Positions 714 to 31,294 of a stretch of DNA of 64,000 nt are shown here, in pieces (positions within the stretch are counted from its first letter, which is position 1; each line of letters starts with the position of its first letter). A program made the translations under genes and the position numbers. Source of the stretch: Desulfobacterales bacterium (lineage in GTDB: Bacteria; Desulfobacterota; Desulfobacteria; Desulfobacterales; SKZT01); contig JAGYNR010000001.1 of the NCBI GenBank assembly GCA_018399715.1, positions 8,128 through 72,127 of the forward strand. Reading direction: 5' to 3'. The notes beneath the pieces were generated by a model. That model searched no databases and was not told the DNA's origin. It saw only the letters and a program-made list of their open reading frames with translations.

Positions 714-1194
714 CTATGTATTCACGGGCAAGGCTAACGCCTTGGCCCGTGGCACCCCGTTACCACTGAGGTGATGAAAATTATTTCGAAATTGGCCTGA
801 AAATTCAGGCATTTTTCATATCTCCACAAAAGTAGTTTACGCTTTTTGGATGGAACTTTTGATAAACGAGGATTGGCTTCAGAAAGTGCAAAGTACTTGT
901 GAAGAATGCCAAAATTCATCTAAATTTTTGTTCCGTTGAAAGGTTTCAGCATGGGTACCACGGGCCAAGGCGTTAGCCTTGCCCGTGTGTGCCCGACAGA
1001 TAGAAGCTCTGCACGGACAAGCTTCGCTTCGGCCGTGGCACCCTATAATCTAAATTTAAGTGTTAAAAATTTTAAATCATGGAGTAAAACTGCTATGAAA
1101 ACTCAAAGCAATTTTGGGATAATTTTTATCACCCCAGGCACTATGTATTCACGGGCAAGGCTAACGCCTTGGCCCGTGGCACCCTATTACCACT
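714..1194. repeat. Repeat family A, expanded composite copy. A 364-bp MITE-like core (770-1133) is flanked by 54-bp direct repeats (714-767 and 1141-1194, 52/54 identical).
   Basis: Core termini GGTGATGAAAATTAT (770-784) and ATAATTTTTATCACC (1119-1133) are inverted repeats. The internal GC-rich hairpin CACGGGC..GCCCGTGGCACCC occurs three times. Homologous copies lie at 3540-3823 and 53042-53242. Confidence 0.8.
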
Positions 1195-1268
1195 ATTTTG
1201 AATTACATCAGCAATAATAATGCCGGCTTAGATATACTAAAAAATTTTGGCAAAAAAGGAGTCACGTC

Positions 1269-2102
1269 ATGATAAATCAGCATCAAACTCATCGGAGCTT
1301 TTGTTGCCATTTCATAGGTCTTAGCATGATACTATTTGTTATGATATTGCCTGCGTTTGCAGCCAATGTTCCGGATGTTGACATTCAAAATGATCTGGAA
1401 CGAATTTTTGCCCAAGAGTTATCGGTTAAGGGCTATCCTTTTCAACACCTCATGCAGAAAGCCGCTGATCGTTACCAATTGCCACTTCCGTATGTGCTGG
1501 CAGTAGCCCGTGGTGAATCGTTTTTTGATCCGAATGCCAAAAGCTCAAAGGGGGCTATCGGCATTATGCAGGTGATGCCCTCAACAGCAAAAGGGGAGTA
1601 TAATATTTCAAAGCAGGACTTACTGGATCCGGCAATCAATATCGATGTAGGGGTGCACTATCTGGCCGATCAGTATAAGCGTTTCAAGGATCCCTATCTG
1701 GCACTGGCCGCCTACTACTGCGGATGCGGCGGTATCGATTTAGACAACGGAACCGTTCGGGAGGATTGCAATGAGTACGTACGATACATTCACCAGCATT
1801 TAAGCACCATTATCGCTCAGGCGGAAGGTAAAATTCCTGTCCCCCGGGGCAAATTGCAAAAATTGCTGATCACCCGTTTTGATAATTATCTGGATGCCCG
1901 TCATTTTCTTGAATTTGTCAATCCCCAGTTGAAAAATCTGAAGCTTGACATATTTCGTACTGAAGTACAGATGAGAGATCACTTACGATTTCAATACCAA
2001 ATCATTGCGGCCCATGGTGATGAGATCAGCCGGGAAGCAATATGCAAACAGATCGAGGATGTTACGGGATTTTCGATGTGCAAAATGAAAAATAAATTAT
2101 AA
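1269..2102 (+). CDS. lytic transglycosylase (SLT domain), secreted
   Basis: N-terminal signal/TM segment. SLT catalytic block AVARGESFFDPNAKSSKGAIGIMQVMPSTA and the downstream AAYYCG motif. Confidence 0.8.
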   Translation: MINQHQTHRSFCCHFIGLSMILFVMILPAFAANVPDVDIQNDLERIFAQELSVKGYPFQHLMQKAADRYQLPLPYVLAVARGESFFDPNAKSSKGAIGIMQVMPSTAKGEYNISKQDLLDPAINIDVGVHYLADQYKRFKDPYLALAAYYCGCGGIDLDNGTVREDCNEYVRYIHQHLSTIIAQAEGKIPVPRGKLQKLLITRFDNYLDARHFLEFVNPQLKNLKLDIFRTEVQMRDHLRFQYQIIAAHGDEISREAICKQIEDVTGFSMCKMKNKL

Positions 2103-2145
2103 AAACAGAACATCTTATCAAAAATTTCGAAAGGGAGATGCTCCC

Positions 2146-3534
2146 ATGAAACAATCGGTTAAATATTTATTTATTTGTTTCGGTATAATAATTCTAAACG
2201 TCGGCTGTGCCACCACAAACAAAAATACACGGGAAAACAGGATGCCCGGATGGGTGAAATTACCCCAAATGGTTTCGGAGAGCTTTTCCTATCATATTAC
2301 AGACCCACAGGTCCGAAAGGTGTTGATGAGTATCGAAACCAAATCACTGGGACCGTCCAATCGTTTGGAAATCAAGCTGTTGCAGCAGTTAGCTTCAATT
2401 GATAACCCGGATGCCATGGGAAATGCATTTGATCAGGTCTGGGAAACCGAAAAGTCACTGCGGGAAATTTTTCAGCAAAACGATCCCCCGGCTGCCTTTA
2501 TCCCTTCCCTGGCATTGTCCTATTTTATGCTAACCTATGATGATACTTACGATTGGCGCGACCAGACAGCCGAAACGCTTTATAATCGCACGCTTCAGGA
2601 AATAAAACCCAACCGGCTCAGTGGTTATCCACTGCATTACTATATCCTGGCACTTTTAAACAATGGAAATTTTGATACGGCATGGCTGTTTTTGAACCAG
2701 TTGAAAAAAATAACAACGCCGACCATTTATTTGAAAGACTTGAATATTGCCCTGGACTACGGCATGAAAAACAATGACGTTCATTTTATCACCCAAATTA
2801 TTCATCAAATGATTACCCATTGCCGGGAAAATGATTTAATACTGCCTGAAAAAAACATCACGGTAGCTCTGGAAAAATTGAAAACATCCGGCGGTTTAAA
2901 ACCGGTGGCTGAAGGCTTGTGCCATTATTTCGATCCCGAAACGTTAAAAGAATATGCTTTTTATCAGTACATTGCGCCTTTTGAGAAAATCGAGACACAG
3001 TTTCAGAGCCAAAAACTGCAACAACAGACGGCAACCAGCAAGCCTGAAAAACCGGAAACCCAAAAACCATTTTCTAAACCGGCTGTAATTGAAAAACCGT
3101 TGGTTACCCCAAAGACGCCGCCAAAATCTGAAATCTCAAAAATTAAATTGAGGGAAGATGCAGTGCATATTCGTGTGCAGACAATTTCCGCCAATAATAA
3201 GGCGAATTATGTTGATCCGGAACTGGGCGACATGGGTGTTCAACTTAAGGAATCTTTACAGATGTCTCAGGTTTATCTGAAAAACGAAAGTGCGTTTCTT
3301 CTGATACCCGGACGGCAGGAGACACTGACGATTGACAATTATCACGATGTCATTGTTTTATTAAAAACCGTTTCCGCCGGCAATGCCTGCATTGATGTTA
3401 CCATCCGAAAAGGCGCTGAAGAAATTTATAACACCGTAATCAATTCGGTGGATAATGGGGAAACAATTATCGGCGGTCCGAAAATTGATGATGATAGCTT
3501 GATATTGCGCATTACTACGTGGTTGAAAATATAA
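2146..3534 (+). CDS. hypothetical lipoprotein
   Basis: Signal peptide with lipobox (ILNVGC). Pro/Lys/Thr-rich linker. GGAG-type RBS upstream. No family recognised. Confidence 0.6.
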   Translation: MKQSVKYLFICFGIIILNVGCATTNKNTRENRMPGWVKLPQMVSESFSYHITDPQVRKVLMSIETKSLGPSNRLEIKLLQQLASIDNPDAMGNAFDQVWETEKSLREIFQQNDPPAAFIPSLALSYFMLTYDDTYDWRDQTAETLYNRTLQEIKPNRLSGYPLHYYILALLNNGNFDTAWLFLNQLKKITTPTIYLKDLNIALDYGMKNNDVHFITQIIHQMITHCRENDLILPEKNITVALEKLKTSGGLKPVAEGLCHYFDPETLKEYAFYQYIAPFEKIETQFQSQKLQQQTATSKPEKPETQKPFSKPAVIEKPLVTPKTPPKSEISKIKLREDAVHIRVQTISANNKANYVDPELGDMGVQLKESLQMSQVYLKNESAFLLIPGRQETLTIDNYHDVIVLLKTVSAGNACIDVTIRKGAEEIYNTVINSVDNGETIIGGPKIDDDSLILRITTWLKI

Positions 3535-3539
3535 TAAAA

Positions 3540-3823
3540 GGTTTCAGCTATGGTGATGAAAATTATCCCAAAATTGCTTTGAGTTTTCATAGCCGTTTTA
3601 TTCCAGGATTTAAAATTTTTAACACATAAGTTTAGATGATAGGGTGCCACGGGCGAAGCGAAGCTTGCCCGTGTAGAGCTTCTATCTGTAGGGCACACAC
3701 GGGCAAGGCCAACGCCTTAGCCCGTGGCACCCATATTGAAACCTGAAAACTTTCTTCGGAACAAAAATTCGGATGAATTTATAGGCTAATTTCAAAACAA
3801 TTTTCATCACCATAGGCGGCACC
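3540..3823. repeat. Repeat family A, nested MITE-like copy in inverted orientation relative to 770-1133
   Basis: Outer TIRs are CTATGGTGATGAAAATT (3548-3564) and its reverse complement (3800-3816). The inner 204-bp module (3540-3743) has TIRs GGTTTCA-NN-ATGG. It is about 90% identical to 938-1133. Confidence 0.8.
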
Positions 3824-7151: not shown

Positions 7152-7769
7152 TTATCCTTCATTTTCATATAATCTATAGTAATCAATTACCTTTTGCACA
7201 TACCTTTGGGTTTCCGAATATGGTGGAATGCTTCCGTATCGATCTACGGCGGAGGGGCCTGCATTGTATGCCGCAAGAGATAGCAATATATCGCCGTTAT
7301 ATCGCTGGAGCATATTTTTTAGATACCGGGCACCCCCCATTATATTTTGCAATGGATCAAAAGGGTCATTGATAGACAATAAATTGAAATTTTGCGGCAT
7401 GATCTGCATTAAACCGATTGCGCCTTTTTTGGATATGGCATCACAATTAAAATTCGATTCAACCTTGATAATCGCTTTGATCAAATTGCAGGAAAGATTA
7501 TAGTGAGTAGACGCCTGAATAATATATTCATTGATTTTTTCAATATTAAAATAAGTTGAATCCGTACTTCCGATTTCTTCCAGGTACGGTTTATAATTTA
7601 AAGGCTTTCCTGCGGTTGCAACGGGTGTATTGGTAAAATGAACCACCCCGTCTTTGTCTACATATCTGAATATTTCCGCTCCCCCTGTTATGGGACTGCA
7701 AAAACTTAAAAAACATATCAGCAAAAAATAGTTTTTTGCGCTCAATACATTCATCCTTGAAATAATCAT
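7152..7769 (-). CDS. lytic transglycosylase (DUF4124-like N-terminus plus SLT domain)
   Basis: IFRYVDKDGVVHFTNTP (DUF4124-like). SLT block KVESNFNCDAISKKGAIGLMQIMP and AAYNAG. Confidence 0.8.
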   Translation of the reverse strand: MIISRMNVLSAKNYFLLICFLSFCSPITGGAEIFRYVDKDGVVHFTNTPVATAGKPLNYKPYLEEIGSTDSTYFNIEKINEYIIQASTHYNLSCNLIKAIIKVESNFNCDAISKKGAIGLMQIMPQNFNLLSINDPFDPLQNIMGGARYLKNMLQRYNGDILLSLAAYNAGPSAVDRYGSIPPYSETQRYVQKVIDYYRLYENEG

Positions 7770-10700
7770 TAAAACATCTGAAGCTGAACCTGACTATTTT
7801 GGGTCTTGTTTTTTACATTCATTTTCTCGTAAAATCTCAGACATTGTTCGATTTGACCTACGAAAGGAGACAACTTTCTGTTTACAATTTTTCCATATAT
7901 CTGTCGTCTGTGAGACCAGGTTAAAAAAAGATACTCCATGGCCCGGGTCATGGCTACATAAAAAAGGCGGCGTTCCTCATCTATATCCTGGCAAATACCG
8001 GCATCATGGTTATATGGAATCAACTCATCTTCGCAACCCGCTATAAATACTACCGGAAACTCTAATCCCTTAGACGCATGCATTGTCATCAATGCAACTC
8101 TTTCGGCTTTTGGGATATAAACATCAGGATCGGTCTGTAATGCTGCCATAGACAAAAATTTACAAATATTCTGACCAAACTCCATGGAAAAATCAAGAAT
8201 TTTATTCAACGCTTTTTGGGAGGAATCATTGGTATTTTCCAGAGATCTGCTGATATAATGGTCAACCAGTATTTCTAATTTTTTACGGACAGTCACAGCA
8301 TCTTTGCACTTTTCTTTCATCCGTTGTATATCGGCCATGGTAAAGGTGACCAACTTCTTCCGGTCTGGTAAGGTCGCCATATTTTCGACTATTCGTAGCA
8401 TTGAAATGACTTCAACGACACTTTTCGTGCTAAAAACATGTTTTTTGGCCACCAGTTGATAAGGAATTCCTCGTCGCCTGAAAGCATCCGCTAACACTTC
8501 TCCTTGTTTTCGTGTTCTGAAAAGAACAGCAAAATCAGAAAAACCTTTATCCCGATGTTCATTGCTAACCTGAATTCTTCCGGAATCGATACTATAAAAA
8601 TCTGCTCCGCCCATAAGTTTTTCCACCTGCCGGGCGATAGTTTCCGCTTCGGCTTTTTCAGAGATGGTTTCAATGATCCTGACAGTTGATATACTTTTTA
8701 TGGTAGAAAAAAGTTGTTCAGATGAAAATTCTGATCTTGATTTTTCAATAACCTGGTAAGATGCCTTTAAAATCGTTTGGGAAGACCGGTAGTTTCTTTT
8801 AAGACGGATAATTTCGGCATCCGGATAATCATTCAGCAATTGTTGAAAATACATAATATCCGAACCTCTGAATCCATATATTGCCTGGTCGGGATCACCA
8901 ATAACGCAAAGCTTAGAACTTTCATCAGCTAGTAAATTCTTTGTCTCACCCGGTACCATTGCCTTGATAAACCGGTACTGGGCCTTATTCAAATCCTGAT
9001 ATTCATCCACAAAAATATACTGAAATTGATCCTGATACGTTTTCAAAAAAGCAGAATCGGACTCAAAGCGCTTAACCACGTTGGTGATCAAGTCTTCAAA
9101 ATCCCAAAGTTTTTCGGATGCTAACCGTTTCTGATAAACATCAAAAACGGTTTTAATGACATCTCCGGTAAATTGGGCGGGGAACTCAATATTTTGTTTT
9201 GCCGCTACAATTTTATCCAATATGACCTGCGGTTTCTCTTTAATATGAATTCCCTCGGACAACAAGCCGTTGATCGCTTCCTGAACATAAAATATCCGAT
9301 CCTCATCATTTAAAACCGAAAAACCTTCATATTCGGGTAATTTTTGTAACATATGGATACAAACCGAATGAAAGGTTCCTACAAACGGCAGTTGTTTTAC
9401 ATTATTTCCCAATAAACGGGTAAGGCGATCTTTCATTTCAGAGGCGGCTTTATTTGTAAACGTTACCGCCAGGATTTTTTCCGGTATCACCTGTTTTTCC
9501 CGGATCAAATGGACAATTTTGTACGTTAAGGTTCTTGTTTTTCCGGTTCCGGGTCCGGCTACAATCAAAAGAACCCTTCCCAAATGATAAACGGCATGAC
9601 GCTGCTCTTCATTAAGGCATTCGGTTTTTCTGTTTTCGGAATCTTTCCCGGTATGTTTTTTCATGGGTTTTGCCGGAGACGTTTTTGGGAGGAATATTTC
9701 CGGTTCATCTGTTTTTCGTGTTACGCGGTTTTCTTTTTGAACAAAGATATCATCCTGGGAGAATACAAAAAGAGATTTTTGGGCAGTGAGTATCTCGCGT
9801 TCCCCGTCTTTAAAAATTTTTACTTTTCCGTATTCTCCGTCATAACCAGGATGTATAAAAACTTTGTTTTCCCGCATACGCTCTACTGCTACTTTTAACA
9901 GCGGAACATTGATGTTATCCAAAGCTTCAGACGGTATCTGATATAAAACTTTAAGTTCGGGTCCGCCTTTGGAAATAACGACGTGATATGCCTCTTCAAC
10001 TTTTTTGCTTTTTGGTCCGACCCGGAAGATTTCTGAAAGGATATCAACAAGCGGAACAATACTGATATAGGTATTTGAATATTTCGGTTTGATACCCTCA
10101 CAACGGTCAGACAACGCATTGATCCGGTAAAGCACGCCGAGTGTCAAAGGTTTTCCGCACACCGGGCAAATGCCATTATTAAGACAGGTTTGTTCGGGAT
10201 TAAAACAGATGCCGCATTTACGATGTCCGTCATAATGATATTTACCTTCTTGGGGATAAAATTCAAGGGTTCCTATAAACTTTTCAGGATCACCCGTCTT
10301 CATGGCATCAATGATGGAAAAATAATCTAAACCTGTATTGAACAAGTTAGCTTCTCTTCCCAAATTTGCCGGTGAATGGGCATCGGAATTGGAGACCAGC
10401 GTTAAATTATCGAGACTTGATATTCTCCAGTTCATCGCAGGATCGGATGACAGACCGGTTTCAACAGCGGTTATATAAGATGTCAAATCTTCAAAACACT
10501 CCCGGATAGAATCAAAACCTGATTTGGAACCTAATACAGAAAACCAGGGTGTCCAGATATGGGCAGGGATGAAAAAACCATGCTCAGATGTATCCAGCAT
10601 TATTTCCAGTAAATCTCTTGAGTCTAATCCCAATATGGGTCTTCCATCTGAGGCAATGTTTCCGATAGCTGAAAGTTTCGCAGAAAAATCAGAAACCGCT

Positions 10701-11050
10701 TTTAAATCAGGAAAAAAAATCAGGTTATGAACCTTACGGGTTTTTCCGTTTTTTTTATAAATATTGCTGATTTCAGTTGTCAAAATAAACCGGACATCGT
10801 TTCTGCATACGCTGGGTACCAGTTTATCACATGATTTTGCTATATCCGGTTTTAAGCGAAACAGCCCTTGTTCTGCCGGAACCAGTTTTTCCCGAATTTC
10901 CTCAAACCATTCGGGATGCGTAAAATCACCCGTTCCCACAACGGTGATACCTTTTTTCTGAGCTGATATATAAAGATTTTCTAGGTCCAGATTTTTGGCA
11001 GTTGCCCGCGAAAATTTAGAATGAACATGAAAATCCCCAATAAATCTCAT
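7769..11050 (-). CDS. EndoQ-like PHP/Zn-finger endonuclease fused to a UvrD/PcrA-type SF1 helicase
   Basis: N-terminal part: DFHVHSKFSRA, GTGDFTHPEW, PAHIWTPW, SNSDAHSPANLGREAN, a Cys4 finger and PGYDGEYGKVKIF. C-terminal part: AGPGTGKT, AVTFTNKAA, DEYQD, GDPDQAIYGFRG, MHASKGLEFPVVF and YVAMTRA. The likely start is ATG 11048-11050 with an AAGGA SD. The ORF is open to 11101. Confidence 0.8.
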   Translation of the reverse strand: MRFIGDFHVHSKFSRATAKNLDLENLYISAQKKGITVVGTGDFTHPEWFEEIREKLVPAEQGLFRLKPDIAKSCDKLVPSVCRNDVRFILTTEISNIYKKNGKTRKVHNLIFFPDLKAVSDFSAKLSAIGNIASDGRPILGLDSRDLLEIMLDTSEHGFFIPAHIWTPWFSVLGSKSGFDSIRECFEDLTSYITAVETGLSSDPAMNWRISSLDNLTLVSNSDAHSPANLGREANLFNTGLDYFSIIDAMKTGDPEKFIGTLEFYPQEGKYHYDGHRKCGICFNPEQTCLNNGICPVCGKPLTLGVLYRINALSDRCEGIKPKYSNTYISIVPLVDILSEIFRVGPKSKKVEEAYHVVISKGGPELKVLYQIPSEALDNINVPLLKVAVERMRENKVFIHPGYDGEYGKVKIFKDGEREILTAQKSLFVFSQDDIFVQKENRVTRKTDEPEIFLPKTSPAKPMKKHTGKDSENRKTECLNEEQRHAVYHLGRVLLIVAGPGTGKTRTLTYKIVHLIREKQVIPEKILAVTFTNKAASEMKDRLTRLLGNNVKQLPFVGTFHSVCIHMLQKLPEYEGFSVLNDEDRIFYVQEAINGLLSEGIHIKEKPQVILDKIVAAKQNIEFPAQFTGDVIKTVFDVYQKRLASEKLWDFEDLITNVVKRFESDSAFLKTYQDQFQYIFVDEYQDLNKAQYRFIKAMVPGETKNLLADESSKLCVIGDPDQAIYGFRGSDIMYFQQLLNDYPDAEIIRLKRNYRSSQTILKASYQVIEKSRSEFSSEQLFSTIKSISTVRIIETISEKAEAETIARQVEKLMGGADFYSIDSGRIQVSNEHRDKGFSDFAVLFRTRKQGEVLADAFRRRGIPYQLVAKKHVFSTKSVVEVISMLRIVENMATLPDRKKLVTFTMADIQRMKEKCKDAVTVRKKLEILVDHYISRSLENTNDSSQKALNKILDFSMEFGQNICKFLSMAALQTDPDVYIPKAERVALMTMHASKGLEFPVVFIAGCEDELIPYNHDAGICQDIDEERRLFYVAMTRAMEYLFLTWSHRRQIYGKIVNRKLSPFVGQIEQCLRFYEKMNVKNKTQNSQVQLQMF

Positions 11051-11109
11051 CACTTGTCCTTTATGGATATCCACTGTTAATAACAATGGGAAGTTGTTCA
11101 ATTAACTCT

Positions 11110-11305
11110 TTAAATATTGTTGATAACATCATACTTATGAACAAGAATATATTGATTGTCAAAAAACTAAAAAAATAAATGATTCAATGGATATCTTATC
11201 AACATTCGCAAATGAAACCATAAATAGAAAAATCAAACAGTTAAAACAATGATAACGAAATAAACAATTTGTAGTATTAATATTGTTATATAAATATAAA
11301 ATCAT
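11110..11305. repeat. AT-rich imperfect direct repeat, left copy (partner at 19248-19443)
   Basis: The first 35 nt match 31/35 and a distal 35-nt block matches 28/35. The spacing between the two blocks is 150 nt in both copies. It contains DnaA-box-like TGTTGATAA (11118-11126) and TTATCAACA (11196-11204). Confidence 0.75.
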
Positions 11306-11377
11306 AACAACAGATGTTAAAAAAGAAATATATCGATCAAAACGGCAGCAAATCCACCCATTGATGACTCTATATCA

Positions 11378-14005
11378 TTAGGCTTCGATTACTATCCCCT
11401 TCCTTAAACCTGAAAACCATTGGTCGTATAAAACCGGCGTAAGAAGATCGAACATGTAATGCTGCCGGGCATCCGGGCGGTATTTTTTGGAAATATCAGC
11501 GATATTCACCGTTTTTAATCGCTGGTTTACCTTTTTAAAGTGTGCCTTGGCGTATTCGGCCTTGGCCGGGGTGGATTCGTCCTGGTCGTCATCCGACTTG
11601 ATTTCTACCACCCGGATCAGATATTCGATGCCCTCGTCCTGAAAATTTCTCAACGTCTCAATGTGGTTATTTTGTCCTTTGGTGATCAGTTTTAACAGGT
11701 AATTATCCAAATGTATTTTAATAAAAAAATCCGGGTTAAATCCCCGGCGTGTTCTGTCTTTACCGCCTCGCCAGAATTCGTAGTCTATGCTGTAAAATCC
11801 CTTGTCCGGGGATTTAATCCAGGCATCGATATAATCCGCGTGATCGATTAACTGAAAAACAAATTCCCTTTCCGGGGTATGCGACACTAAAACGATGTAT
11901 TGCGGGTTTTTAAGTCTGGACGCGTTGACCACATAGGGGGATCGTTCATCGTTTTCCACCAATGATCGGATAATATCCGGATGTGCTGTAATAAAAGGAT
12001 CTGCATCAAACATCGGAAGCATGAGTTGTTTACCTTGTTGTTGGGTGCCTCGCCATTCACTCAAAAATTCCAGAACTGTTTTGTTGTCATCAGAAAGTTC
12101 GGTTTCATAATCTTCACTCAAAAATGCGGTGGCATCTTTATCCAGTTCACTTAACCGCAGACTGTGTTTATCCATATCGCATGTTGCTGTGGGTATAAGG
12201 TTACCCTCAATATTTTCAAAAATCCGTTTTTTGGTTCCCGGCGGCAAAAACTGGTTAAAATAATTTTCGATTTGTTTTTTGTTTTCCAGGGAAAGCCGGT
12301 TGCCTGTTATATCAACCGTTTCCATGGCTTTTTGGATGACGGCCTTGATATCTTCCTCGGTCGGATACCGATCGGCAACGATCACCTCGCCAAAGTCAAG
12401 ATGACCGGCCCGAAATAGTTCGGGATTTATCAGGGGCCTTGAGGAAATATACATGTCACTCTGGGTTACTGCGTCGACCAGTTCTTTGATATGATCGGCA
12501 AAACGGTCATGATTGGTCACGGTCAGACAGGGATATGTTTGATGAATATGAGCGCTGGGAATATTTCGGGGAATCCGCAACCCACGGCCCAGTACCTGGG
12601 ATATGAGAAGCTTGGATTTAAACACCCGCTCTTCCATGGGCACAATCTGAAAAACATTGTCCACATCCCAACCTTCGGACAGCTTGTTGACGGCGAATAT
12701 GTACTCTACAGAACCACCTGTTTTTTGGGGGTTAATTTCTTCAATATGTTCCAGTTGCTCCTTATATTCAGATTCTGAAATGCGGCTGACCACGCAGATC
12801 ACCTTTTGTCGCATCTGGCCAGTAATTTCAGAATCCGTGCCGGTCGCGCCCTTATGCTTCTTTTCGTAATCAGCCAAAAATTTGATAAACGCTTCACTTC
12901 TGTCTTGAGCGTTTTTCTGGGTAGGGCAGATAAATATCGTGACCGGCTTGACCTGCCGTTTGCCTCTTAACCGGTAGGCGTATTTTTTCCGGTTATCCAG
13001 GTGGTTTTTCAGAACAATCTCAAACCGCTGATCAATTGTCAGGGGCTTATCGCCTTCATCGGTCCGGGTACGCACATTGTTGTTGATGTCCTTGATGTAT
13101 TTCTGATTAATGGCATCTTTGATGGAATAGTTGTAGATGATATCGGCAAAATATTCATCCTTGTTATAAGGCGTGCCAGTAAAGCCGATATGCCGGGTAA
13201 TCTTCTTGTTTCTTCTTAAAAACTGCATCCACAAGCGTTCTTCTTTTTCAGCAGTTCGCTTACCTTCGACCGTTTCATCCTTGTCCATGACCAATTGATT
13301 TTGTGAAAATTGTAAATGGGAATAGGCATGATGGATTTCATCGCCCAGCACCAGCACTTCGTCTGTGTTTTTAAACAGGGTATCGGTAATCGAGCCAAAC
13401 GTGTAAACCGCGTTGATATTTTCAATAACGATGGAATCGTCTTCAATGGGATCGTTGTCGTTTAAGATGTTAATGGCTTTACCCCGATATTTCATTGGCA
13501 GCTCTTCCATCAGGCTTTTATCGGTCATCAGGTCTTTAAACTTTTCCCGAAGGCCCTGTTCGATAATAGTTGAAGCCGGCCCCAACACCAGAACCCGGCG
13601 GGTTAGTCCCATCACCAAAAAAAGATATGCCACGGCAAAAATCACGTAAGACTTGCCAGTGCCGGTAGCCATGTGCACAACGCCGGACAACCGGTCCGGT
13701 AAGGGTAAATGGTTTACCAACATTTTTTGACTGCTGAACCGCTGCTGAATCCGGGGCTTCACGTAATTATCTTTAGCTAAATCGACAATGGTTTTATAGG
13801 CACCACCCCAGAGATAGATCATGACCTGCTTAATGGCCTGCTTCTGGTATTCCCGCGTTCCGGTTAATTGGTCTACATAATCTTCAATCTCCGAAAAATT
13901 GAATTTGTTGTAGTTACACCGCCGGATATTGATGTCCAGGGTGTGTTCGGACAAGTTCATCTTTTTAACGACCGATTTTTTCTTTTTCTGTCTGGACATG
14001 AGCAT
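11378..14005 (-). CDS. res: Type III restriction endonuclease, Res subunit (SF2 helicase-nuclease)
   Basis: Walker A MATGTGKSY and DEAH-like LGDEIHHAY. Size is 875 aa. The start ATG overlaps the extended mod frame as TAATG. Confidence 0.8.
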   Translation of the reverse strand: MLMSRQKKKKSVVKKMNLSEHTLDINIRRCNYNKFNFSEIEDYVDQLTGTREYQKQAIKQVMIYLWGGAYKTIVDLAKDNYVKPRIQQRFSSQKMLVNHLPLPDRLSGVVHMATGTGKSYVIFAVAYLFLVMGLTRRVLVLGPASTIIEQGLREKFKDLMTDKSLMEELPMKYRGKAINILNDNDPIEDDSIVIENINAVYTFGSITDTLFKNTDEVLVLGDEIHHAYSHLQFSQNQLVMDKDETVEGKRTAEKEERLWMQFLRRNKKITRHIGFTGTPYNKDEYFADIIYNYSIKDAINQKYIKDINNNVRTRTDEGDKPLTIDQRFEIVLKNHLDNRKKYAYRLRGKRQVKPVTIFICPTQKNAQDRSEAFIKFLADYEKKHKGATGTDSEITGQMRQKVICVVSRISESEYKEQLEHIEEINPQKTGGSVEYIFAVNKLSEGWDVDNVFQIVPMEERVFKSKLLISQVLGRGLRIPRNIPSAHIHQTYPCLTVTNHDRFADHIKELVDAVTQSDMYISSRPLINPELFRAGHLDFGEVIVADRYPTEEDIKAVIQKAMETVDITGNRLSLENKKQIENYFNQFLPPGTKKRIFENIEGNLIPTATCDMDKHSLRLSELDKDATAFLSEDYETELSDDNKTVLEFLSEWRGTQQQGKQLMLPMFDADPFITAHPDIIRSLVENDERSPYVVNASRLKNPQYIVLVSHTPEREFVFQLIDHADYIDAWIKSPDKGFYSIDYEFWRGGKDRTRRGFNPDFFIKIHLDNYLLKLITKGQNNHIETLRNFQDEGIEYLIRVVEIKSDDDQDESTPAKAEYAKAHFKKVNQRLKTVNIADISKKYRPDARQHYMFDLLTPVLYDQWFSGLRKGIVIEA

Positions 14006-14133
14006 TAATCTTTAAGAATAAAAGGGTTGCTTTCATTTCCGTGCTTGTCGATGGCAATTACTGCCACACTGTTGGTTAATCCGGAAATTTTGATTTCCTG
14101 GTTTTGGTTGATATCCCTGGCAAAGACTGTTTT

Positions 14134-16065
14134 TTACATATCAAAAATGTTGTTGTCATAATTTACATCTACCAGCAACATGGCCAGACCTTCCAGGCCG
14201 TTAAATTTTTCACCGTTTCGATTTAAAATACCGGTTTTAAATTTTGTAATCTTTAAGCCCTCCTTGATTTTTTTGACGGCAATCTCAACCTCATCGTTAA
14301 AATAAAAACCGGTAGCGTTGATCAGGTGATTGACATTCTCCTGGGAGTTGGGCTGTTCGGTAATCTGAAAATTGCGGGAGACCTCCTCTAAAACTTTATA
14401 GGGAAACTTTAGCAGCTTAAAGTGAACTTCCTTGCCGCTATCGTTTTTCAGGATGGTATCACCGATGACGGTACAGGTCTCCGGTGTGATAATGTAATAG
14501 TCACCTCTTAATTTACCGCCGGACTGAATCAGGATCTGTTTTAAATAATCTTCGTCGATGCGGATGTCTTTCAGGTATTCATCTTCCCAGACCGGGTATA
14601 CCTCCACCGGGTGCCCGTCCTTTTCCCCGTAGATATTGACCAGTTTGTACTTGCCGTTGAGGTTTTTCGAGTCCCGGGGCAGTTGAAACAGGCCCAGCAC
14701 AAAATTGATGTACGCATCCTTGTTTTCCCGCAGGTTTATGATACGGGAAAAGTCATAGGCCCCGCAGGAGACCACGCAAAACGGTTGAGGGCCTTTGCCG
14801 TATTTTTTATTGGCGCGAACATTTTTATTCAGGTCTTTTGATTCTCCAATGCGCAGGATGCGTTTTTGCATGGTGTAAATGGCATGCTTGCCGAAATCAC
14901 AAACTATCCAGCGACGCCCCAGCTTTTCCGCCACTGCCGCCGTGGTGCCGGAACCGGCAAACACATCCATTACCAAGTCGCCGGGATTGGATGAGGCGCG
15001 AATGATACGTTCAAGAAGGGCTTCTGGTTTTTGGGTGGGGTAATCAACTCTTTCTTTCGCTTGTGAATTAATATAATTGATTTCCCAAACATCAGGGGCA
15101 ATAGTTTTTGTTATATCAATTACAACTTTTCGAGCAAATTCATTAATATCAATTCTGCCTTCTTGTATTGCTGCATCAACTTTTTCTTTGTTATAAATAA
15201 TTAGTTGGGGCTGCCTTTTCCCATTTATATATACAGAATTTCTATCCCAACCCTTTTCATGTTTCTTTCTTTGTCCTTCTGTCGGTTCAATATGTACTTT
15301 ATTTAGATTATATTGATGTGTTTTTGAATACCAGAGAATTGAATCGTGCATATTTTGAAATGAATCGCTTGCAGCCGTCCATCTTCGGTAAAACCAAACT
15401 ATATCATTTCGAAAATTATTTTTTCCGAATACTTCGTCTAAAATCACTTTTATATAATGGCTCATTTTATAATCCAGATGGACATAAATACTTCCGTCTT
15501 CCGCCAAGATATTTCTCAATAAAATCAGTCGCTCTCTTACGCCTTCGATAAACTCGGCTGCTACCACCTTGTCTGAATAACTCTTTTCATCCCCCGCCCC
15601 GCCAAAATCACTCTTGGTCGCAAACGGCGGATCAATATAAACCAGCTTGACCTTGCCTTTAACCTTGTCCTTGATCAGGGGGTCCTGGTTCTGAAAGCAG
15701 GTTTTTAAGAACTGAAGGTTATCGCCCTGAACGATCAGGTTCACCCAGTCGGTCTTTGATTTGTTCAGAAAGTCCAGGAGTTCGAGCTGGGTATGGCCGG
15801 AGAGGCTCCCCTCGTTGAAAAATCGCTCGGCCTGCAACGGCGAGCCGCTTTCCATGGCAAAAGTCTGGTTTAAAATAGCGGCATCACTGCGTTTGCCCGC
15901 ATATTCCAGGGTAGCTATTTTGGCTTTATCCAGGATAGCCACATCATATTTCTCCGCCACATGGGGAAAAAGCTTGGGCATCAGCTCCGGGGGCGGTTCG
16001 GTGCTTTCGTTGATGGCTTCCATAATCTGCTGTTTTTCTTCATCGGTCAGGTTTGTCTTTGCCAT
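14134..16065 (-). CDS. mod: Type III DNA methyltransferase, Mod subunit (beta-class N6A/N4C MTase), apparently truncated by an in-frame TAA
   Basis: Motif [16 protein letters not shown] comes before motif [25 protein letters not shown]. The same frame continues for 42 sense codons after the TAA (14134-14136), down to a TAA at 14005-14007. Confidence 0.8.
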
Positions 16066-16251
16066 TATTGCTCTCCGGGTTTCATAAAATTCGGGCCTGT
16101 AAAAACCGTATTCATCTTCATCTGGTTTAGGGCAGTGATAATTGCGTTTTATTTTTTATCGGCCCAATATAAATCTTTTAATATCAAACTATTAGAATTA
16201 TTGCATTAGGTCACGATTGGGCATTTTGCGTTTTATCGGCCCAATACGACC

Positions 16252-16815
16252 TTAATTTTTCGGATACCATAAGGCGGCCCTGGTAGCACCGATATGGTAG
16301 ATCTTTCCATCGCTTTTAAGTTCAGCAACCAGCTTTTTTACCTGGTTGTCGGACAGAAACGGTAACACCTGCATGAGCTCCTTGAACCGGCTGCCGGATT
16401 CTTTGTTATCTTGTATGTGTTTCATCAGCAAAGCCTTGTTCGTTTCCCGGTCCAGCCCTTTTTTGCGAGTGTAAGCGCCTTTTTGACCGGTCATTTTATA
16501 ATATCCTCGTCCCAGCATATAGCGGACACCACGACCCCGACCGTATCGTTCGATAATGCCCATGGAAACCAGTCGTTGAAGTCTGGATTTGAGTGAATCC
16601 GGTATGGGTTGACTCCGGTGAATCAGGTCCAGTAACAAAAAATCTTCGGTTCCGAAAAGCTCTAGTCTTTCCCTACCCACTTTTTCCAGAAACTGAAGAA
16701 AACGAACATCCTGAACCTCGCCGTTTAAGGTTAACGTCACCTGATAGGCGTCCGTTCCCGTAAAATCCGGAATGGATTTACCTTCCTGGATGCTTAACTC
16801 AAACATCAGGTTCAT
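16252..16815 (-). pseudogene. COG2865 RecG-like ATP-binding/transcriptional regulator, C-terminal fragment (wHTH)
   Basis: It continues the 16819-17337 ORF in the same frame across one TAG. The junction reads ...GLVERSG * G MNLMFELSIQEG..., matching the family pattern ER.GsGi.rm. Confidence 0.6.
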
Positions 16816-16818
16816 GCC

Positions 16819-17337
16819 CTAGCCGGAACGCTCCACCAGCCCGCATTTGGAGAAGATATCGGCCACACGGCGGTTGCGCGGGGCCTGGCGGTTTAAGATG
16901 TTATGCTCATTGATTCCCGGCGGAAACCCGCCGGGACTTTCAATCACCAGACGGCGAGGGTACTGACGAACAAAAATATTGCCGGGATGCCGGTAGTCCC
17001 GGTGACTGACGGCATTCAAAACGGCCTCGCGGACGGGCCGTTCGGAAAAGGTGGGAATATCCTCGATAAACAGACCTGTCTGGAAATGCTGCAAGTCGTT
17101 GCGAAGGTTGATGATATCCCACAACTGGTCGTAGAAACTGAAAAACCCCTGCCGGAACTCTACCCGCTGCTGAGCCGGACCGGAGGCATCTGAAGACCGG
17201 TATTCAAATACCACTTCCGCCCGGGCAAGATGACGGCCCATGGCCGCATGGGTGCCGAACAGAATCAGAGCGGCATAGGTCGGCCTGCCATCTGCCATGG
17301 CTTCAATATCATTTAAAAATGGTACGTTCCGTTTCAT
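16819..17337 (-). pseudogene. COG2865 RecG-like ATP-binding protein, HATPase_c_4-like fragment lacking the N-terminal AlbA_2 domain
   Basis: TYAALILFG, REAVLNAVSHRDYRHPGNIFVRQYPRRLVIESPGGFPPG and RNRRVADIFSKCGLVERSG. Visibly more GC-rich than its neighbours. Confidence 0.6.
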
Positions 17338-18506
17338 TAGCGGCTAAAAGCCTGTGTCAACAACTGGTCAAGTACATTAACTTCGGACTGCCCCGGTTGT
17401 TCCGGCCTCAGGTTGAACTTGTTTATCCGCAGGAACCGGTAACCGTAACTTTCCAGCTCTATCTGGCGTCTGATGTCATAGTCGAGGTATTCGGCGGAAA
17501 AATTGTGCTTGGTGACAGTGTCCGGGTTTTTCGTGTGAAATTCCACACCATCATACTCCAGAATCAGGGCTTGTTCCCGCCCATTTCGGGCAAGAGTCAG
17601 CAGAAAATCTATACGGTATCGGGGAATCTGTTTATGGTATTTCGTCCGTATATATTCACCAATATTAAATTGGGGCACGATCTTGAGATTTTCCCGGTGT
17701 GTTTCCACAAACCGTGTATTTATCAGCAACTGATAAAGGCGCTCTTCAGCCGGAGACTCAAAAACAGACGGGTCTTCTACAAAAAAATCGTTCTTTTTCG
17801 TGGTTTCAAGAAGCGCATGGTAGTGCTTCAAGGCATCTCCCAGGCGTGAGTGGCTGTAATCGCTGATCTGCATATTGTGAACAAATACCATGGTGTCTTT
17901 AGCTCTGCTGAACCCAACATTTAAGCGCTGCATTTTCAGGCTGCGAGTAGTGTCGGCCGTTCCACCGATCACAGGATAAATGGTTCTCAAATCCGCATTG
18001 ACATATTTTTTATCTTCCACAAAAGAATAATAAACTATATCGCGCTCTTCGCCCTGAACATCACCTACAAACCAAACTGCCAGGTTGTGGTTTCGTTTGA
18101 GTTCCGGCAGATTCATTTTTTCGTTGATGGCCTGCTCCATTCGGAGCTGCTGTTCCTTAAACGACGTAATAATGCCGATAGAGCCTGTAAAACCGTTGGA
18201 GATCCTGGTATTAAAATCTTCAATGATGGCGTCGATTTCATCAAGATTAACGTTGCGGCCTGAATCGCCCCTGGTTTCAACCCGAATAAACTGAAGCACC
18301 TGGATGACGGGCCGGGTACGAATCCGATTAACCGTCAGTTCAAGCTGGGCCGACTGGTAAAAAAATGTATTGGAATAGTCGATAATTTCCGAAAAGCTGC
18401 GGTAATGGTCCCGTAAAGAAGTAGTGTAGTTGGCGATGGCTTTGGCAAAACTCAGGGTAGAGGTACGTATTTTGACTGTCACGTGCCAGGAGTTGCAGTA
18501 TGTCAA
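17337..18506 (-). pseudogene. SF1 helicase C-terminal (AAA_12-like) plus DUF559/Vsr-like endonuclease domain, remnant
   Basis: GDVQGEERDIVYYS and RLNVGFSRAKDTMVFV (helicase motifs V/VI). C-terminal YRIDFLL...LILEYDGVEFH. No Walker A anywhere upstream. It overlaps the next ORF in another frame. Confidence 0.6.
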
Positions 18507-18945
18507 ACTGCTGTTTTAAAAAATGGGTGCTGTTGAAAATTGATGCAGGGACTATAGAAAGTCCCAGTTGGGCTTTTAACCGACCTATTTTCTGATCCTG
18601 TTGATCAATCAATATCTGTTCAAGTTGCTTTCGAAGAGCCAGGTTGTATTTTCGAGTCCCCTCCTGAAAAGCTTTTGTCTTTTGCTGTTGTTTTCTTTCA
18701 AAATCCAATGGGTCATCTTGTAACGCTACCTGGATTTCCTGATCAGATGCAATAAGTACCTTATCTGCTTTAACAATAGCGACAAGTTCCTGTTCAACGC
18801 ATGTTTGTAAATAACCCGGACCGAATTTATCAGAAAGCGCTTTCTCGATATCTAAAAGCACATCGTCTTTTAGCAGCGTTATTGTATGCTCATGTGACTT
18901 TATCACAACGGGTTTATTATCGCCTGCTTTAATTTTTGCCAGCAA
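18340..18945 (-). pseudogene. upstream fragment of the same helicase-nuclease gene (frameshifted, N-terminally truncated)
   Basis: It overlaps 17337-18506 by 167 nt in a different frame. Its own frame is closed by a stop at about 18970. No ATPase motifs. Confidence 0.45.
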
Positions 18946-19628
18946 CTGTTCCTGGAATTTTTGAAATAATCATAGGTCAAAAGAAAACTCATCATCAGTC
19001 CAGCAATAATTGACAAGTGTTTTAAAATTGAATTTTGTTTCCGTAAATGCGGCAAAGTAATTTAGGATGGTAACTGGAAGCTTTTTTGAGTTTGACCGCA
19101 TATGCTTTTCGTTTTTTTTCTATTATTGGGATAACAATGATATGTTGGCACCATCTTTTGTTCTATACAACGTAAATATATCCTGATTTTTGCTTAACTT
19201 AAAGGATATCCTGTTTGTAAACATGAGAAAAATGGCAATGTTTAGATTAAATCTTGTTAATAACATCACACTTATAAACAAAATTTAGATTTTGGTCAAA
19301 AAGTCAAATCATATCCACAATTAATATATAGATGATTAACAGTTGCAGAGAAATGAATGGGAAATAAAATCAAGTAATTAGAGAATTGATAGAGATATAA
19401 ACAACGTATAATATTAATAATATTATATAAATATAAAATAATTATTTAATGTTATAATATCCACAGACGACATACTGTACGGAAAAAAATCTTGTTTACC
19501 TTTATAAAACAGTATATAGTAATTTGATTATCATTTTGATCCTGTTATGGTAGTTTTGAAATCTTAACTGATATCAGATGACATAATTTTGTATATAAAT
19601 CAAGTTATCGAAAGTTTTAAATATCAAT
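18946..19628. other. candidate replication-origin (oriC-like) AT-rich region at a coding-strand switch
   Basis: It is a 680-bp non-coding AT-rich spacer. All genes from 3840 to 18945 are on the minus strand and all from 19629 to 25063 are on the plus strand. ATATCCACA occurs at 19311-19319 and 19457-19465 (8/9 to TTATCCACA). dnaN-gyrB lie immediately downstream. Confidence 0.4.
19248..19443. repeat. AT-rich imperfect direct repeat, right copy (partner at 11110-11305)
   Basis: See the left copy. The offset between copies is 8138 bp throughout the aligned blocks. Confidence 0.75.
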
Positions 19629-20240
19629 ATGGGGCTCTTATCTACATCTGTTTCTATCACACAATACCAGGTAAAAGGAACACTTGAATCTGTTCTAGAT
19701 ACTGTAGGAAAAGGATTGAAAAAAAACAGTATACAGGAAATCGATGATGATGTGTCAGACAGTGCTATTGGATGGACTTCCATTGATCATCCGTTTAAGC
19801 CTGATTTTGAAACATCATCATTTATTTTCGGTATTTATCTGGTTTTCTCATTGAGAATTGACAAAAAAAGTATTCCCGTAAAGGTGTTAAATAAATATTG
19901 TGCATTAGAAGCTGACAAAATGTTGTCTGAAAATGGACGAAACTATTTGAATCGAAATGAAAAACGAATGATCAAAGATCGGGTATATACACAGCTTTTG
20001 AAACGCTATCCGGCAACACCGAGTATTTATGATGTCATATGGAATTATGAAGCGGGAACGTTATGGTTTTTTTCAAATCAAAAAAGGCCAAATGAAGAGC
20101 TGGAAACACTTTTCTCAAAATCTTTCCATTTAAATCTGATCCGGATTTTTCCATTTACTGCAGCGGATTTGACAATGGATCTGAAGGAAAAAGAACGGGA
20201 TATATTGATTCAATTGTCGCCCACACAATTTTCGGAGTAG
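19629..20240 (+). CDS. RdgC-like recombination-associated protein, N-terminal-half homologue
   Basis: It aligns by eye to about the first 175 residues of E. coli RdgC: GW..., KKSIPVKVL, LNRNEKRMIKDRVYTQLLKR, WNYEAGTLWFFSNQKRPNEELETLFSKSF. Confidence 0.55.
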   Translation: MGLLSTSVSITQYQVKGTLESVLDTVGKGLKKNSIQEIDDDVSDSAIGWTSIDHPFKPDFETSSFIFGIYLVFSLRIDKKSIPVKVLNKYCALEADKMLSENGRNYLNRNEKRMIKDRVYTQLLKRYPATPSIYDVIWNYEAGTLWFFSNQKRPNEELETLFSKSFHLNLIRIFPFTAADLTMDLKEKERDILIQLSPTQFSE

Positions 20241-20245
20241 GTGTT

Positions 20246-20770
20246 ATGCTCGATGTTTCAGTGTCTTATAACCGCTACAAATTTCTTGGACATGAATTTT
20301 TAACATGGCTTTGGTTTCTGACAGAAAATCAAAGGGATTTTATTCATGAAAAAGTGGCTGACTTGACATCACTGGAAATTGGCAATCGGGTTGTTTTGGA
20401 AAACCGTTTTAAAGATACTTTGGAGACCATAACGATCAAAGGCGATGATGCTGGTTTAGAGGAAGGAATTCTATCATTAAAAAAAGGGGCGGTAGTAACC
20501 GAGTTAAATTTAACCTATACGTTTGACGAGTTGGAATGGCAGTTTTCATTGAAAGGTGAAAGCCTTGCCATTTCAGGATTAAAAACACCGGCAACATTGC
20601 CTGTAAACAATACAGAGGATATTGAAGAAGTTGTTTTAGAAAAAGTAATGCATTACGAAAAAATGATTGATTTTATCAACATAATTTTTCGTGAGTTTAT
20701 TAACAAAAGAATATCTGAAGATTGGGAACAAACGGTTGTTCCTGAAATCAGAAAATGGATTACGAAATAA
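20246..20770 (+). CDS. RdgC-like protein, C-terminal-half homologue
   Basis: FLTWLW, ITIKGDD..LEEGILSLKKGAVVTELNLTY..WQFSLKGESLAISGLK and a terminal acidic/helical part parallel RdgC residues from about 175 to 300. It has its own ATG with a GGAG 8 nt upstream. Confidence 0.5.
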   Translation: MLDVSVSYNRYKFLGHEFLTWLWFLTENQRDFIHEKVADLTSLEIGNRVVLENRFKDTLETITIKGDDAGLEEGILSLKKGAVVTELNLTYTFDELEWQFSLKGESLAISGLKTPATLPVNNTEDIEEVVLEKVMHYEKMIDFINIIFREFINKRISEDWEQTVVPEIRKWITK

Positions 20771-20847
20771 GCTTATATTGATAAGCCGGAAACGAAGATA
20801 ATTGATGCTTTTTTACGTATTGTCGTAGGGATATTAGGATACACATT

Positions 20848-24395
<3,548 letters not shown>

Positions 24396-28037: not shown

Positions 28038-29660
28038 TTAATCAAATAGTCTTATGCCGCGGCGTTCTAAAAGGCTTCCTTCAGCGAGATAAAGCTCTGT
28101 TAACGCAATTCGGTAATTAACGATTGCTTCTACCTCGGAGATTTGGCTGGCTAACAGATCCCGTTGGGCCTGTGCCACCAAAAGAGATGTACCGGCACCC
28201 ACAGCAAAACGATCCTGCTCCGCACGGAGGGTTTCTTCCTGAAGCTGACGGGTTGCTGTGGAAGCTGTAATTTGTTGCCTGGCTCTTTCCACCTCATTTA
28301 CCGCCAGCCTGACATCTATGCATACCATTTGTTCAAGATTGGAAAGAGCTGCGCTTTCCTGACGTACAGATGCTTTGGCTGCATGATCGCGGGCCTTGGC
28401 CGCACGATTTCCCAGGAAATGATTCAAACGAAATCCCACCTCAAAATCATATGTGTCGCTATCCAGCTCATGAAAAGATTTTGAAAAAGAATCTGCATAA
28501 CCACTGTACCCCAGGGCTATAAATAAGTCGAGACGGGGCAGCAGGCCATTTCGGGTGACCATTGTTTCCAGACGATTTTGATGTATAAGAAGCCGGGTTT
28601 CCTCCAAATCCGGACGGGATTTTAAAGCAAGTTGAAGTCGTTCACGGATATCCGTGATGTGCCGGGGTGTCACCTGAAGCTCACTGGTAGCATTTAGGGG
28701 ACAATCCAGACCCATTCCCGTCGGATAAATCAACCGAAGCAGTTTAAACCGATTGTCAAGTGCCAGACTCCGGGCGTTGATCAGTGCCTGCTTCCGCAAA
28801 GCCACTTCCGCCCGTGTCGCAGCAGCCTCGATTTCAGGGTATAATCCTACGGTGATCCGCTCTTCGACTTCATCCCGCTGTTTTTGGGCCAGTGCCAGCG
28901 ATTGTTCAAAGATATCAATTTCTTTTTTTGCCAGCACGTATTTCCAATAAGCTGTTTCTGCCTTTGCCAGAAGTGCTTCCGTAAACCCGCGCAATTGATG
29001 AACACTGGCTATGGTATCCAGTTCCGCCTGCCGCACACCCGCCAGGTTGGCTGCTGGCCCGAAGCCCTTCAGAAGAGACTGGACCAAACTTAGCCCAATG
29101 CGACTGACCTGTTGTTCCGGAGTACGGTTAGAAACAGAGCGATTTTGACCTACCGTCATTTCCAAATTGGTTCCGCTGGGTAGAAATTGACGAATACCTG
29201 CCTGATAAGTCGTGTCACTGCCTTCCACATCGAAACGGGTACCCGTTGAACGGGCGGTTTCAGAGGATTTTTCTTTAAAATATTCAACTTCCCCGAATAG
29301 TTCCGGGTCATAAATTCCCCGTTCTATATCCTCAAAGCTTCCCTTTATCACCGGATTAAACTGTTCCACTTTAAGTTCCTGATTATTTTTAAGCGCCAGC
29401 ATTACTGCCTGTTCAACCGAAAGATCGAGTATTTTTTCAGTTGATTTTTCCGGCAAAGTAGGTAATTCAGGCATTATTTCAAACCGGGTTTGAAGTTGGT
29501 TTACTGAATCAATGCCCGAAAATTGATTATCTCCGGCGAGTCGGCTGTCCTCAGGAGTAAAAACCGGCCAGCGGTCCGGCGTGATACACCCACCGATGCC
29601 GGTCAGTATTACGGGATAAATCAAAAACAGGATAAATTTAGGTAAAAACTGATTTATCAA
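28038..29660 (-). CDS. TolC-family outer membrane efflux protein
   Basis: 540 aa with two coiled-coil repeats typical of OEP/TolC. It overlaps the stop of the RND gene by 4 nt. Confidence 0.75.
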
Positions 29661-31276: not shown

Positions 31277-31294
31277 AAATTGGTATTTTTCTTT

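Follow-up and report, generated by a model that had tools for sequence, protein, structure and literature searches.

Among the closest described systems is the microcin H47 island of Escherichia coli H47, a 13-kb island that has no integrase, lies between imperfect repeats (148 and 144 bp, 76% identical), and has been shown experimentally to excise and integrate without RecA (PMC3191183). The locus described here lies in a stretch of 64,000 nucleotides (the window) from a Desulfobacterales bacterium (GenBank assembly GCA_018399715.1, contig JAGYNR010000001.1, positions 8,128 to 72,127), and consists of a decayed island of Type III restriction–modification (R–M) and other defence-type genes placed between two long AT-rich direct repeats upstream of rdgC, dnaN and gyrB. 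Like the H47 island it is small, has neither integrase nor excisionase and is bounded by long imperfect direct repeats with several short identical stretches; it differs in its size of 7.9 kb, in the length and divergence of its repeats (247 and 245 bp, 65% identical), in carrying defence genes and not a bacteriocin, and in being known from sequence alone.

The prophages e14 and 21 restore icd on integration, supplying a diverged replacement of their target. With these prophages, and with the Vibrio cholerae recA island (PMC4405046), the locus shares long direct repeats that pair a host-derived with an element-derived, diverged copy of the target, and an interrupted unit whose function is restored. 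Those elements encode an integrase and target coding sequence, whereas here a non-coding control region is the target, there is no recombinase, and we infer the element origin of one copy. The arrangement of cargo between direct repeats, each a predicted hybrid of host and donor, is also that of Campbell single-crossover integration, although the usual cases (suicide plasmids, insertion sequence (IS)-mediated cointegrates) involve identical homology, and the partners here would be diverged (homeologous) and the circle and its donor are postulated.

Integrative mobile elements exploiting Xer (IMEX), such as CTX-phi and TLC-phi at dif, are also integrase-less and depend on host recombinases (PMC6744903, PMC9765430), and a duplicated 28-bp dyad is a further point of likeness. 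Unlike IMEX sites, the present locus is not terminus-like, its repeats are collinear over 247 bp rather than ~28 bp, and the dyad stands in a divergent-promoter region beside dnaN. Its 10-bp arms and 8-nt spacer are only loosely dif-like, the dif consensus being 11-bp arms around a 6-bp centre. The locus is a confirmed and well-resolved case of something already known, a defence island without an integrase that sits in a conserved intergenic position and is decaying between long diverged repeats of its target.

The island and its empty site

Comparison with related genomes shows that a horizontally acquired island of ~7.9 kb has been inserted in the control region between a gene for an EndoQ-like/UvrD fusion protein and the rdgC-o174-dnaN-gyrB genes (o174 being an open reading frame (ORF) of 174 aa), and that the repeats on either side of it are two copies of a predicted 247-bp bidirectional host control region which is single-copy in a sister species (Table 1). 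The latter, GCA_963986735.1 (L001), is the closest different species, with an RdgC protein 81% identical to that of the window and flanking DNA of ~75% identity. The RdgC homologues put the source of the window in the Desulfobacterales. In L001 the fusion gene and rdgC are 447 bp apart with no gene between them, and the spacer holds one copy of the segment. The window aligns to L001 from the left flank to 11296 and again from 19248 rightward through rdgC, and the two alignments overlap on L001 9621-9807. At ~15 more distant loci the synteny is the same and every island gene is missing. An empty site with a single AT-rich copy, EndoQ-UvrD adjoining rdgC-dnaN, had been predicted by a first-pass annotation made from the window alone, and L001 bears the prediction out.

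The island in its complete state was found through the best full-length homologue of its Res protein (P0122), which led to four metagenome contigs of the Joint Genome Institute (JGI), L022-L025. These four contigs, which are independent and of the same species, are 97-98.7% identical to the window DNA across flanks and island, and they carry the island at the same place and intact, with a helicase of 690 aa, a Schlafen/ATPase protein of 539 aa, Mod of 715 aa and Res of 954 aa. L022 and L023 span both repeats; L024 and L025 are partial contigs and consistent with them. This comparison shows that the insertion took place before the window strain and those of L022-L025 separated. The idea of an inserted restriction/defence island is thus upheld by its absence from L001 and the ~15 other relatives and its presence in L022-L025, and no relative examined has two copies of the segment without cargo, an arrangement that would have spoken against insertion. 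Scans of genome collections and metagenomes with RdgC returned more distant relatives only, and the window's RdgC, Mod and Res (P0121) proteins had no exact match in the records.

A further conspecific contig, L011 (RdgC 99.5% identical), reaches only 168 bp beyond rdgC (L011 1-168) and stops just within the unique spacer beside the right repeat, the assembly of that sample having apparently broken at the AT-rich region.

Table 1. Features of the island, its flanking repeats and the adjoining host genes in the window; percentages are nucleotide identities, and SD denotes standard deviations
Feature	Position	Strand	Details
EndoQ-like (MJ0043_C/TIGR00375) domain + UvrD/PcrA-type helicase fusion	7769..11050	-	1093 aa; Pfam, NCBIfam
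Left repeat copy	11059..11305	+	247 bp, AT-rich; upstream region of EndoQ-UvrD gene
Repeat unit, 5' part	11059-11109 (left-copy coordinates)		Left vs right 49%; to L001: left 63%, right 53%
Repeat unit, block 1	11110-11147		Left vs right 84%; to L001 66-69%
28-bp dyad, left copy	11117..11144	.	TTGTTGATAA-N8-TTATGAACAA; in conserved block 1
Repeat unit, core	11148-11262		Left vs right 56%; to L001 55-57%; all ~2-2.7 SD above random floor
Repeat unit, block 2	11263-11305		Left vs right 84%; to L001: right copy 81%, left copy 69%
Inserted island, ~7.9 kb	11306..19197	all genes -	Missing from L001 and ~15 other related loci
Type III res	11378..14005	-	875 aa; Pfam ResIII/SWI2_SNF2, PADLOC REase_III
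Type III mod	14008..16065	-	Pfam N6_N4_Mtase, PADLOC MTase_III
Schlafen-AlbA_2/HATPase_c_4 (COG2865-type) remnant	16255..17319	-	Pfam HATPase_c_4; intact 539 aa in L022
SF1 helicase remnant (AAA_12, MkoC/Hhe-like)	17340..19101	-	Pfam, NCBIfam, PADLOC; intact 690 aa in L022
Right repeat copy	19198..19442	+	245 bp; precedes rdgC and, on the opposite strand, the first island gene
28-bp dyad, right copy	19254..19281	.	TTGTTAATAA-N8-TTATAAACAA
Right host operon	19629..24395	+	rdgC-like, 174-aa ORF, dnaN, gyrB; Pfam
rdgC-like gene	19629-20240	+	
dnaN	20848-21963	+	
gyrB	21969-24395	+	

The direct repeats

The two copies, 247 and 245 bp long, are collinear and in direct orientation, with 65.2% identity (BLAST, E = 7e-28) and ~80% A+T, and the alignments confirm that they are homologues. 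Aligned locally with gaps, the segments reach a score 18.7 SD beyond that of dinucleotide shuffles; nowhere in the 64 kb does the left segment have a better partner than the right one, and the longest identical run between them is 17 nt. Without gaps, at an offset of 8137, 132 of 196 positions are identical (z = 10.1 against shuffles), comprising 31/35 in the first 35 nt, 30/35 in the distal 35 nt and 56% in the middle 126 nt. The first-pass annotation had already recognised segments that are collinear and similar beyond chance, and this judgement stands, as does its count for the first 35 nt; several of its measurements need revision. Its constant offset of 8138 gives 65/196 identical positions, which is chance level, so that the right segment runs from 19247 to 19442 and not from 19248 to 19443; its distal block was scored 28/35; its figure of roughly 65-70% for the middle is too high; and its length of ~195 bp falls short of the BLAST alignment. 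Since BLAST extends the repeat leftward to 11059, only 8 nt lie between its start and the conserved EndoQ-like/UvrD start codon (ATG, 11050). A blastx search of 18800-19260 with the EndoQ-UvrD protein gave noise only, with no duplication reaching into the coding region.

Between strains the copies are far better preserved than they are within one. The left copy is 97.6% identical to the left copy of L022-L025 and the right copy 95.5% identical to the right copy of L022 and L023, so that same-position copies agree at 95-97.6%, as against 61-65% for left versus right. Both copies are present in L022 and L023, which are independent assemblies, and the duplication is therefore no assembly artefact and is older than the strain split.

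Conservation is uneven along the unit, with two well-kept blocks on either side of a 115-bp core (Table 1). A single indel event separates the left from the right copy and four to five separate either copy from L001, from which it follows that the common ancestor of the two copies is younger than the one that links them to the L001 copy.

The best-defined element of block 1 is the 28-bp dyad, of the form TTGTTnATAA-N8-TTATnAACAA, which has exactly two matches in 64 kb, one per copy, against 0.06 expected. Its arms are invariant across both strains and both copies except at the n position, the differences between strains falling in the spacer. L001 has a looser version with a spacer of 7 nt, compared with 8 nt in the window, and an extra base in one arm. 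The half-site TTATnAACA is also enriched, with 15 occurrences in the window against 3.7 expected, six of them inside the repeats and two upstream of dnaN. The dyad is probably a protein-binding site, and would most simply be an operator of the divergent promoters. The two half-sites upstream of dnaN (20673-20681 and 20697-20705) are on the same strand, 24 bp apart and ~150 bp from the gene, and fall inside the 3' end of the 174-aa ORF.

Promoter and terminator scans of the AT-rich spacers gave counts not above those of shuffled sequence, save for one terminator-like hairpin at 11344-11358, just past res. A structured RNA was ruled out as a candidate, Rfam at gathering thresholds finding no RNA family in the window.

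Gene content and decay of the island

The profile matches agree with the earlier assignment of the cargo as Type III res-mod, a COG2865-type Schlafen/HATPase_c_4 remnant and an SF1 helicase remnant. As in Type III systems of the EcoP15I/EcoP1I type found in defence islands, mod is followed directly by res (with a 5-bp gap in L022) in a cluster of defence-type genes, Mod has an N6_N4 domain with a variable central segment, and Res carries a helicase-type ATPase domain (ResIII/SWI2-SNF2). Unlike the canonical arrangement, both genes are damaged in the window strain and extra helicase and Schlafen/ATPase genes accompany them; these companions have no full-length match to a named multi-gene system in PADLOC. 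No integrase, transposase or recombinase domain was detected with Pfam, NCBIfam or PADLOC in the decayed island of the window or in the intact island of L022, and the island ends show neither terminal inverted repeats nor similarity to each other beyond chance matches of 7-9 nt.

Damage was scored relative to the intact L022 alleles. The window Res has lost 81 residues of the 954-aa allele through an internal in-frame deletion of 243 bp at ~12399, and Mod ends at a premature stop at 14134, 72 residues early (643/715 aa). The Schlafen/ATPase gene has lost its first 184 codons to a 551-bp deletion at 17318 and is also interrupted by an in-frame stop at 16816-16818; the helicase gene has a stop at codon 44 and a frameshifting deletion of 308 bp at ~18470. 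All four island genes are thus damaged in the window, by stops or by deletions of 243-551 bp, and the allele comparison shows that the four have been inactivated in the window strain since its split from L022-L025. The damage listed in the first-pass annotation (two in-frame stops, one frameshift and N-terminal truncations) was broadly right but incomplete, and Res in the window is not N-terminally truncated. A second kind of change affects Mod, whose central segment (15084-15385, GC 0.32) is mosaic relative to an L022 allele that is otherwise 94-98% identical; this is probably an exchange of the target-recognition domain between strains.

The island has a GC content at third codon positions (GC3) of 0.46-0.585, compared with 0.31-0.41 in the adjacent host genes. 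The mod-res module also occurs at 79-86% amino-acid identity in unrelated contexts elsewhere and is therefore mobile.

How the repeats arose

The reading that we favour, at about even confidence, is that a circular island bearing its own diverged copy of the segment integrated by a single crossover. The island would have acquired its copy of the segment from the corresponding locus of a related donor, and a circular molecule with island and diverged copy would then have entered the host. A single crossover of the Campbell type inside the segment would have produced hybrid repeats that were non-identical from the outset, and it may have fallen near the left edge of block 2, the site of the longest shared run (17 nt), although the signal is weak. 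Each flanking operon would thereby keep a complete upstream region including the 28-bp dyad, and the right copy would set the former EndoQ-UvrD-side promoter region before the island genes. Copies at 65% identity would recombine inefficiently, leaving the island locked in place to decay there.

An imported copy is supported by the one-copy empty site of L001 and the lack of island genes at this site in ~15 other relatives, together with the intact island and both repeats in L022 and L023, and cargo between direct repeats of a homology segment, with one copy of it at the empty site, is the architecture of Campbell integration. The left and right copies are ~35% diverged, far more than the strains are, in which each copy is 95-97% identical, and a duplication made in place must therefore far predate the strain split. 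The single indel and the 84% identity of the blocks would suit a donor more closely related to the host than L001 is. There is a weak switch of informative sites near 11247/19384: to the right of it the right copy and L001 share 8 of 9 sites, as they would if that part of the copy were host DNA. The route needs no island-encoded recombinase, and it fits the near absence of indels, the higher GC3 of the island and the mobility of mod-res. The integrase-less microcin H47 island with its imperfect repeats (PMC3191183) offers a precedent.

Several observations weigh on the other side. The genome, metagenome, plasmid, phage and viral collections yielded neither a donor genome nor a circular form, nor a third species with the island at this site; a search for the island in the plasmid and phage collections gave no match, and viral contigs scanned with the dyad gave 35 chance palindromes, none of them with similar flanks, and no island proteins. 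Recombination of the RecA type would be very inefficient between copies that are now 65% identical and have a longest identical run of 17 nt. The maximum chi-square breakpoint at 11247/19384 is not significant (p = 0.12) in a unit whose core is saturated, and the same switch of sites is expected from in-place duplication after which each copy kept its neighbour's part. The core is in effect saturated by substitutions, judging from its near-random identities, and is unable to date the event. The window-wide host GC3 varies widely, at 0.43 +/- 0.05, so that the values of the island lie partly inside the host range and give no date for the event. Recombination with a donor carrying the same locus, the first of the two origins proposed in the first-pass annotation, accordingly remains favoured rather than proven.

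A possible alternative, which we hold only tentatively, is that the repeats were made in place by an illegitimate insertion, through staggered breaks 247 bp apart or template switching, and then diverged for a long time with only the functional blocks kept: the dyad, the AT-rich block 2, the gene-proximal left part and the rdgC-proximal right part. In both blocks the left and right copies resemble each other more than either resembles L001 (84% versus 58-74%, except for right block 2), as they do in their indels, and this, with the lack of a donor, speaks for such a duplication. Subfunctionalisation also fits, the 5' part being closer to L001 in the left copy and block 2 in the right copy, and the intact island of L022 indicates that selection can keep it whole. 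Such an origin would nevertheless call for a rare mechanism, target duplications of 247 bp being, to our knowledge, not typical of any bacterial insertion route. It also requires that the island stayed intact for ~15-25 times the strain divergence (a core distance of ~0.7 versus 0.03-0.05), and yet all four window genes broke within the last interval, and the GC3 of the island is still above that of its neighbours.

Site-specific integration at the dyad, performed in trans by an Xer-like or another tyrosine recombinase of the host in the manner of IMEX, appears improbable. Here the element would carry an extended look-alike of its target, so that the flanking regulatory region was restored, as icd is by prophages e14 and 21. 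The layout of the dyad (10-bp arms, an 8-bp spacer and an ATAA...TTAT core) presumably resembles that of tyrosine-recombinase core sites, no element of either copy is better conserved, the dyad occurs nowhere else in the window, and the island encodes no recombinase of its own. The microcin H47 island, moreover, is a case of trans-acting, RecA-independent mobility with long imperfect repeats (PMC3191183). Against this, the switch of informative sites, a weak breakpoint signal, is not at the dyad but ~130 bp to its right; the L001 version departs from that of the window in spacer length (7 versus 8 nt) and in the extra base of one arm; the divergent gene orientation with dnaN-gyrB alongside is not that of a terminus-like locus; the viral-contig scan with the dyad yielded chance palindromes only; and an operator for a transcription factor explains the dyad at least as well. 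An extension of this idea, in which the 247-bp unit is a portable recombination-and-regulation module whose dyad is recognised by a host-encoded recombinase, we consider just as doubtful. If it were true, integrase-less defence islands equipped with a look-alike unit would insert at the dnaN-proximal site and come under the control of the neighbouring repair and replication operons, whose own control regions would be restored.

Less credible still is the proposal that the repeats are duplicated modules of a replication origin (oriC), a cluster of DnaA boxes with an AT-rich unwinding element, split by the island; a duplication of an origin-proximal segment was the second origin suggested at first. 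Adjacent dnaN and gyrB, genes diverging from the spacer, the ~80% A+T of the unit and the excess of DnaA-box-like TTATnAACA sites in the repeats and upstream of dnaN all have an origin-like appearance. That motif lacks the conserved C of the DnaA box, however, and neither spacer contains a perfect box; L022, of the same species, has mutations in both of the ATATCCACA sites that the right spacer contains; and orthologous spacers vary from ~100 to 1260 bp, those scanned (850-1260 bp) having no DnaA-box-like sites. GC skew tracks the gene strand over the whole 64 kb, turning negative again across the minus-strand genes at 28-44 kb, and there is no dnaA among the large ORFs of the window. The oriC reading was rejected on the 64-kb skew profile, the DnaA-box scans, the one-mismatch sites, which are conserved neither within the species nor in relatives, and the lack of dnaA in the window, and the earlier suggestion is not supported.

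Finally, chance likeness of two AT-rich spacers, or an assembly artefact, is next to impossible: both segments are indeed ~80% A+T, and the central 115 bp lies merely ~2 SD above the random floor, but this reading is refuted by the alignment scores given above (E = 7e-28, local-score z = 18.7, ungapped z = 10.1), which put the similarity far above chance, by the collinearity of both copies with the single L001 copy, and by the two copies in the independent assemblies L022 and L023.

Significance of the locus

The locus presents three states at one site, in which the island is absent, intact or decayed, and illustrates that a defence island lacking an integrase can be housed between long repeats of a host control region that have diverged strongly. 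Erosion has been rapid, four genes having been hit during ~2% strain divergence. For annotation it is of use that repeats at 65% identity go undetected by the usual programs for finding att sites. The case adds a little to what is known of the entry of defence islands into chromosomes without a recombinase of their own, and opens no new question.

Flanking genes and other features of the window

The two host units are transcribed divergently, away from the repeat-bearing intergenic region. The EndoQ-UvrD protein is 98.5% identical to that of L022, with the ATG at 11050 conserved, and its orthologue adjoins rdgC in L001. The EndoQ-like domain is part of a UvrD fusion in L001 and L022 as in the window, and forms a stand-alone protein of 424-440 aa at the same position in more distant relatives (L002 7417-8739; L005 7880-9154). 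To the right, the order rdgC-like gene, 174-aa ORF, dnaN, gyrB is kept across the Desulfobacterales-like loci L001-L021, and the 174-aa ORF between rdgC and dnaN is conserved and has no Pfam match. Neither dnaA nor recF stands beside dnaN.

Elsewhere in the window, an inverted repeat of 193 nt (941-1133 and 3552-3744, 92% complementary) encloses 2.4 kb (1134-3551) containing a second SLT-domain ORF (1269-2102) and a 462-aa ORF without assigned function (2146-3534). In L022 and L001 genes for AdoHcy hydrolase and SAM synthetase stand beside the TPR gene instead, and the arrangement in the window is a predicted second strain-specific rearrangement or insertion. A GC-rich hairpin element of 35 nt (CACGGGCAAGGCTAACGCCTTGGCCCGTG...) occurs four times, in both orientations (723-757, 953-987, 1150-1184 and 3698-3732), and looks like an element of the repetitive extragenic palindrome (REP) or miniature inverted-repeat transposable element (MITE) type. 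An AcrB-type transporter of the resistance–nodulation–division (RND) family appears as two adjacent minus-strand ORFs within 29657-32779, of which 31295-32779 corresponds to profile positions 3-494 and 29657-31276 to positions 505-1021, and the gene is probably disrupted or split.

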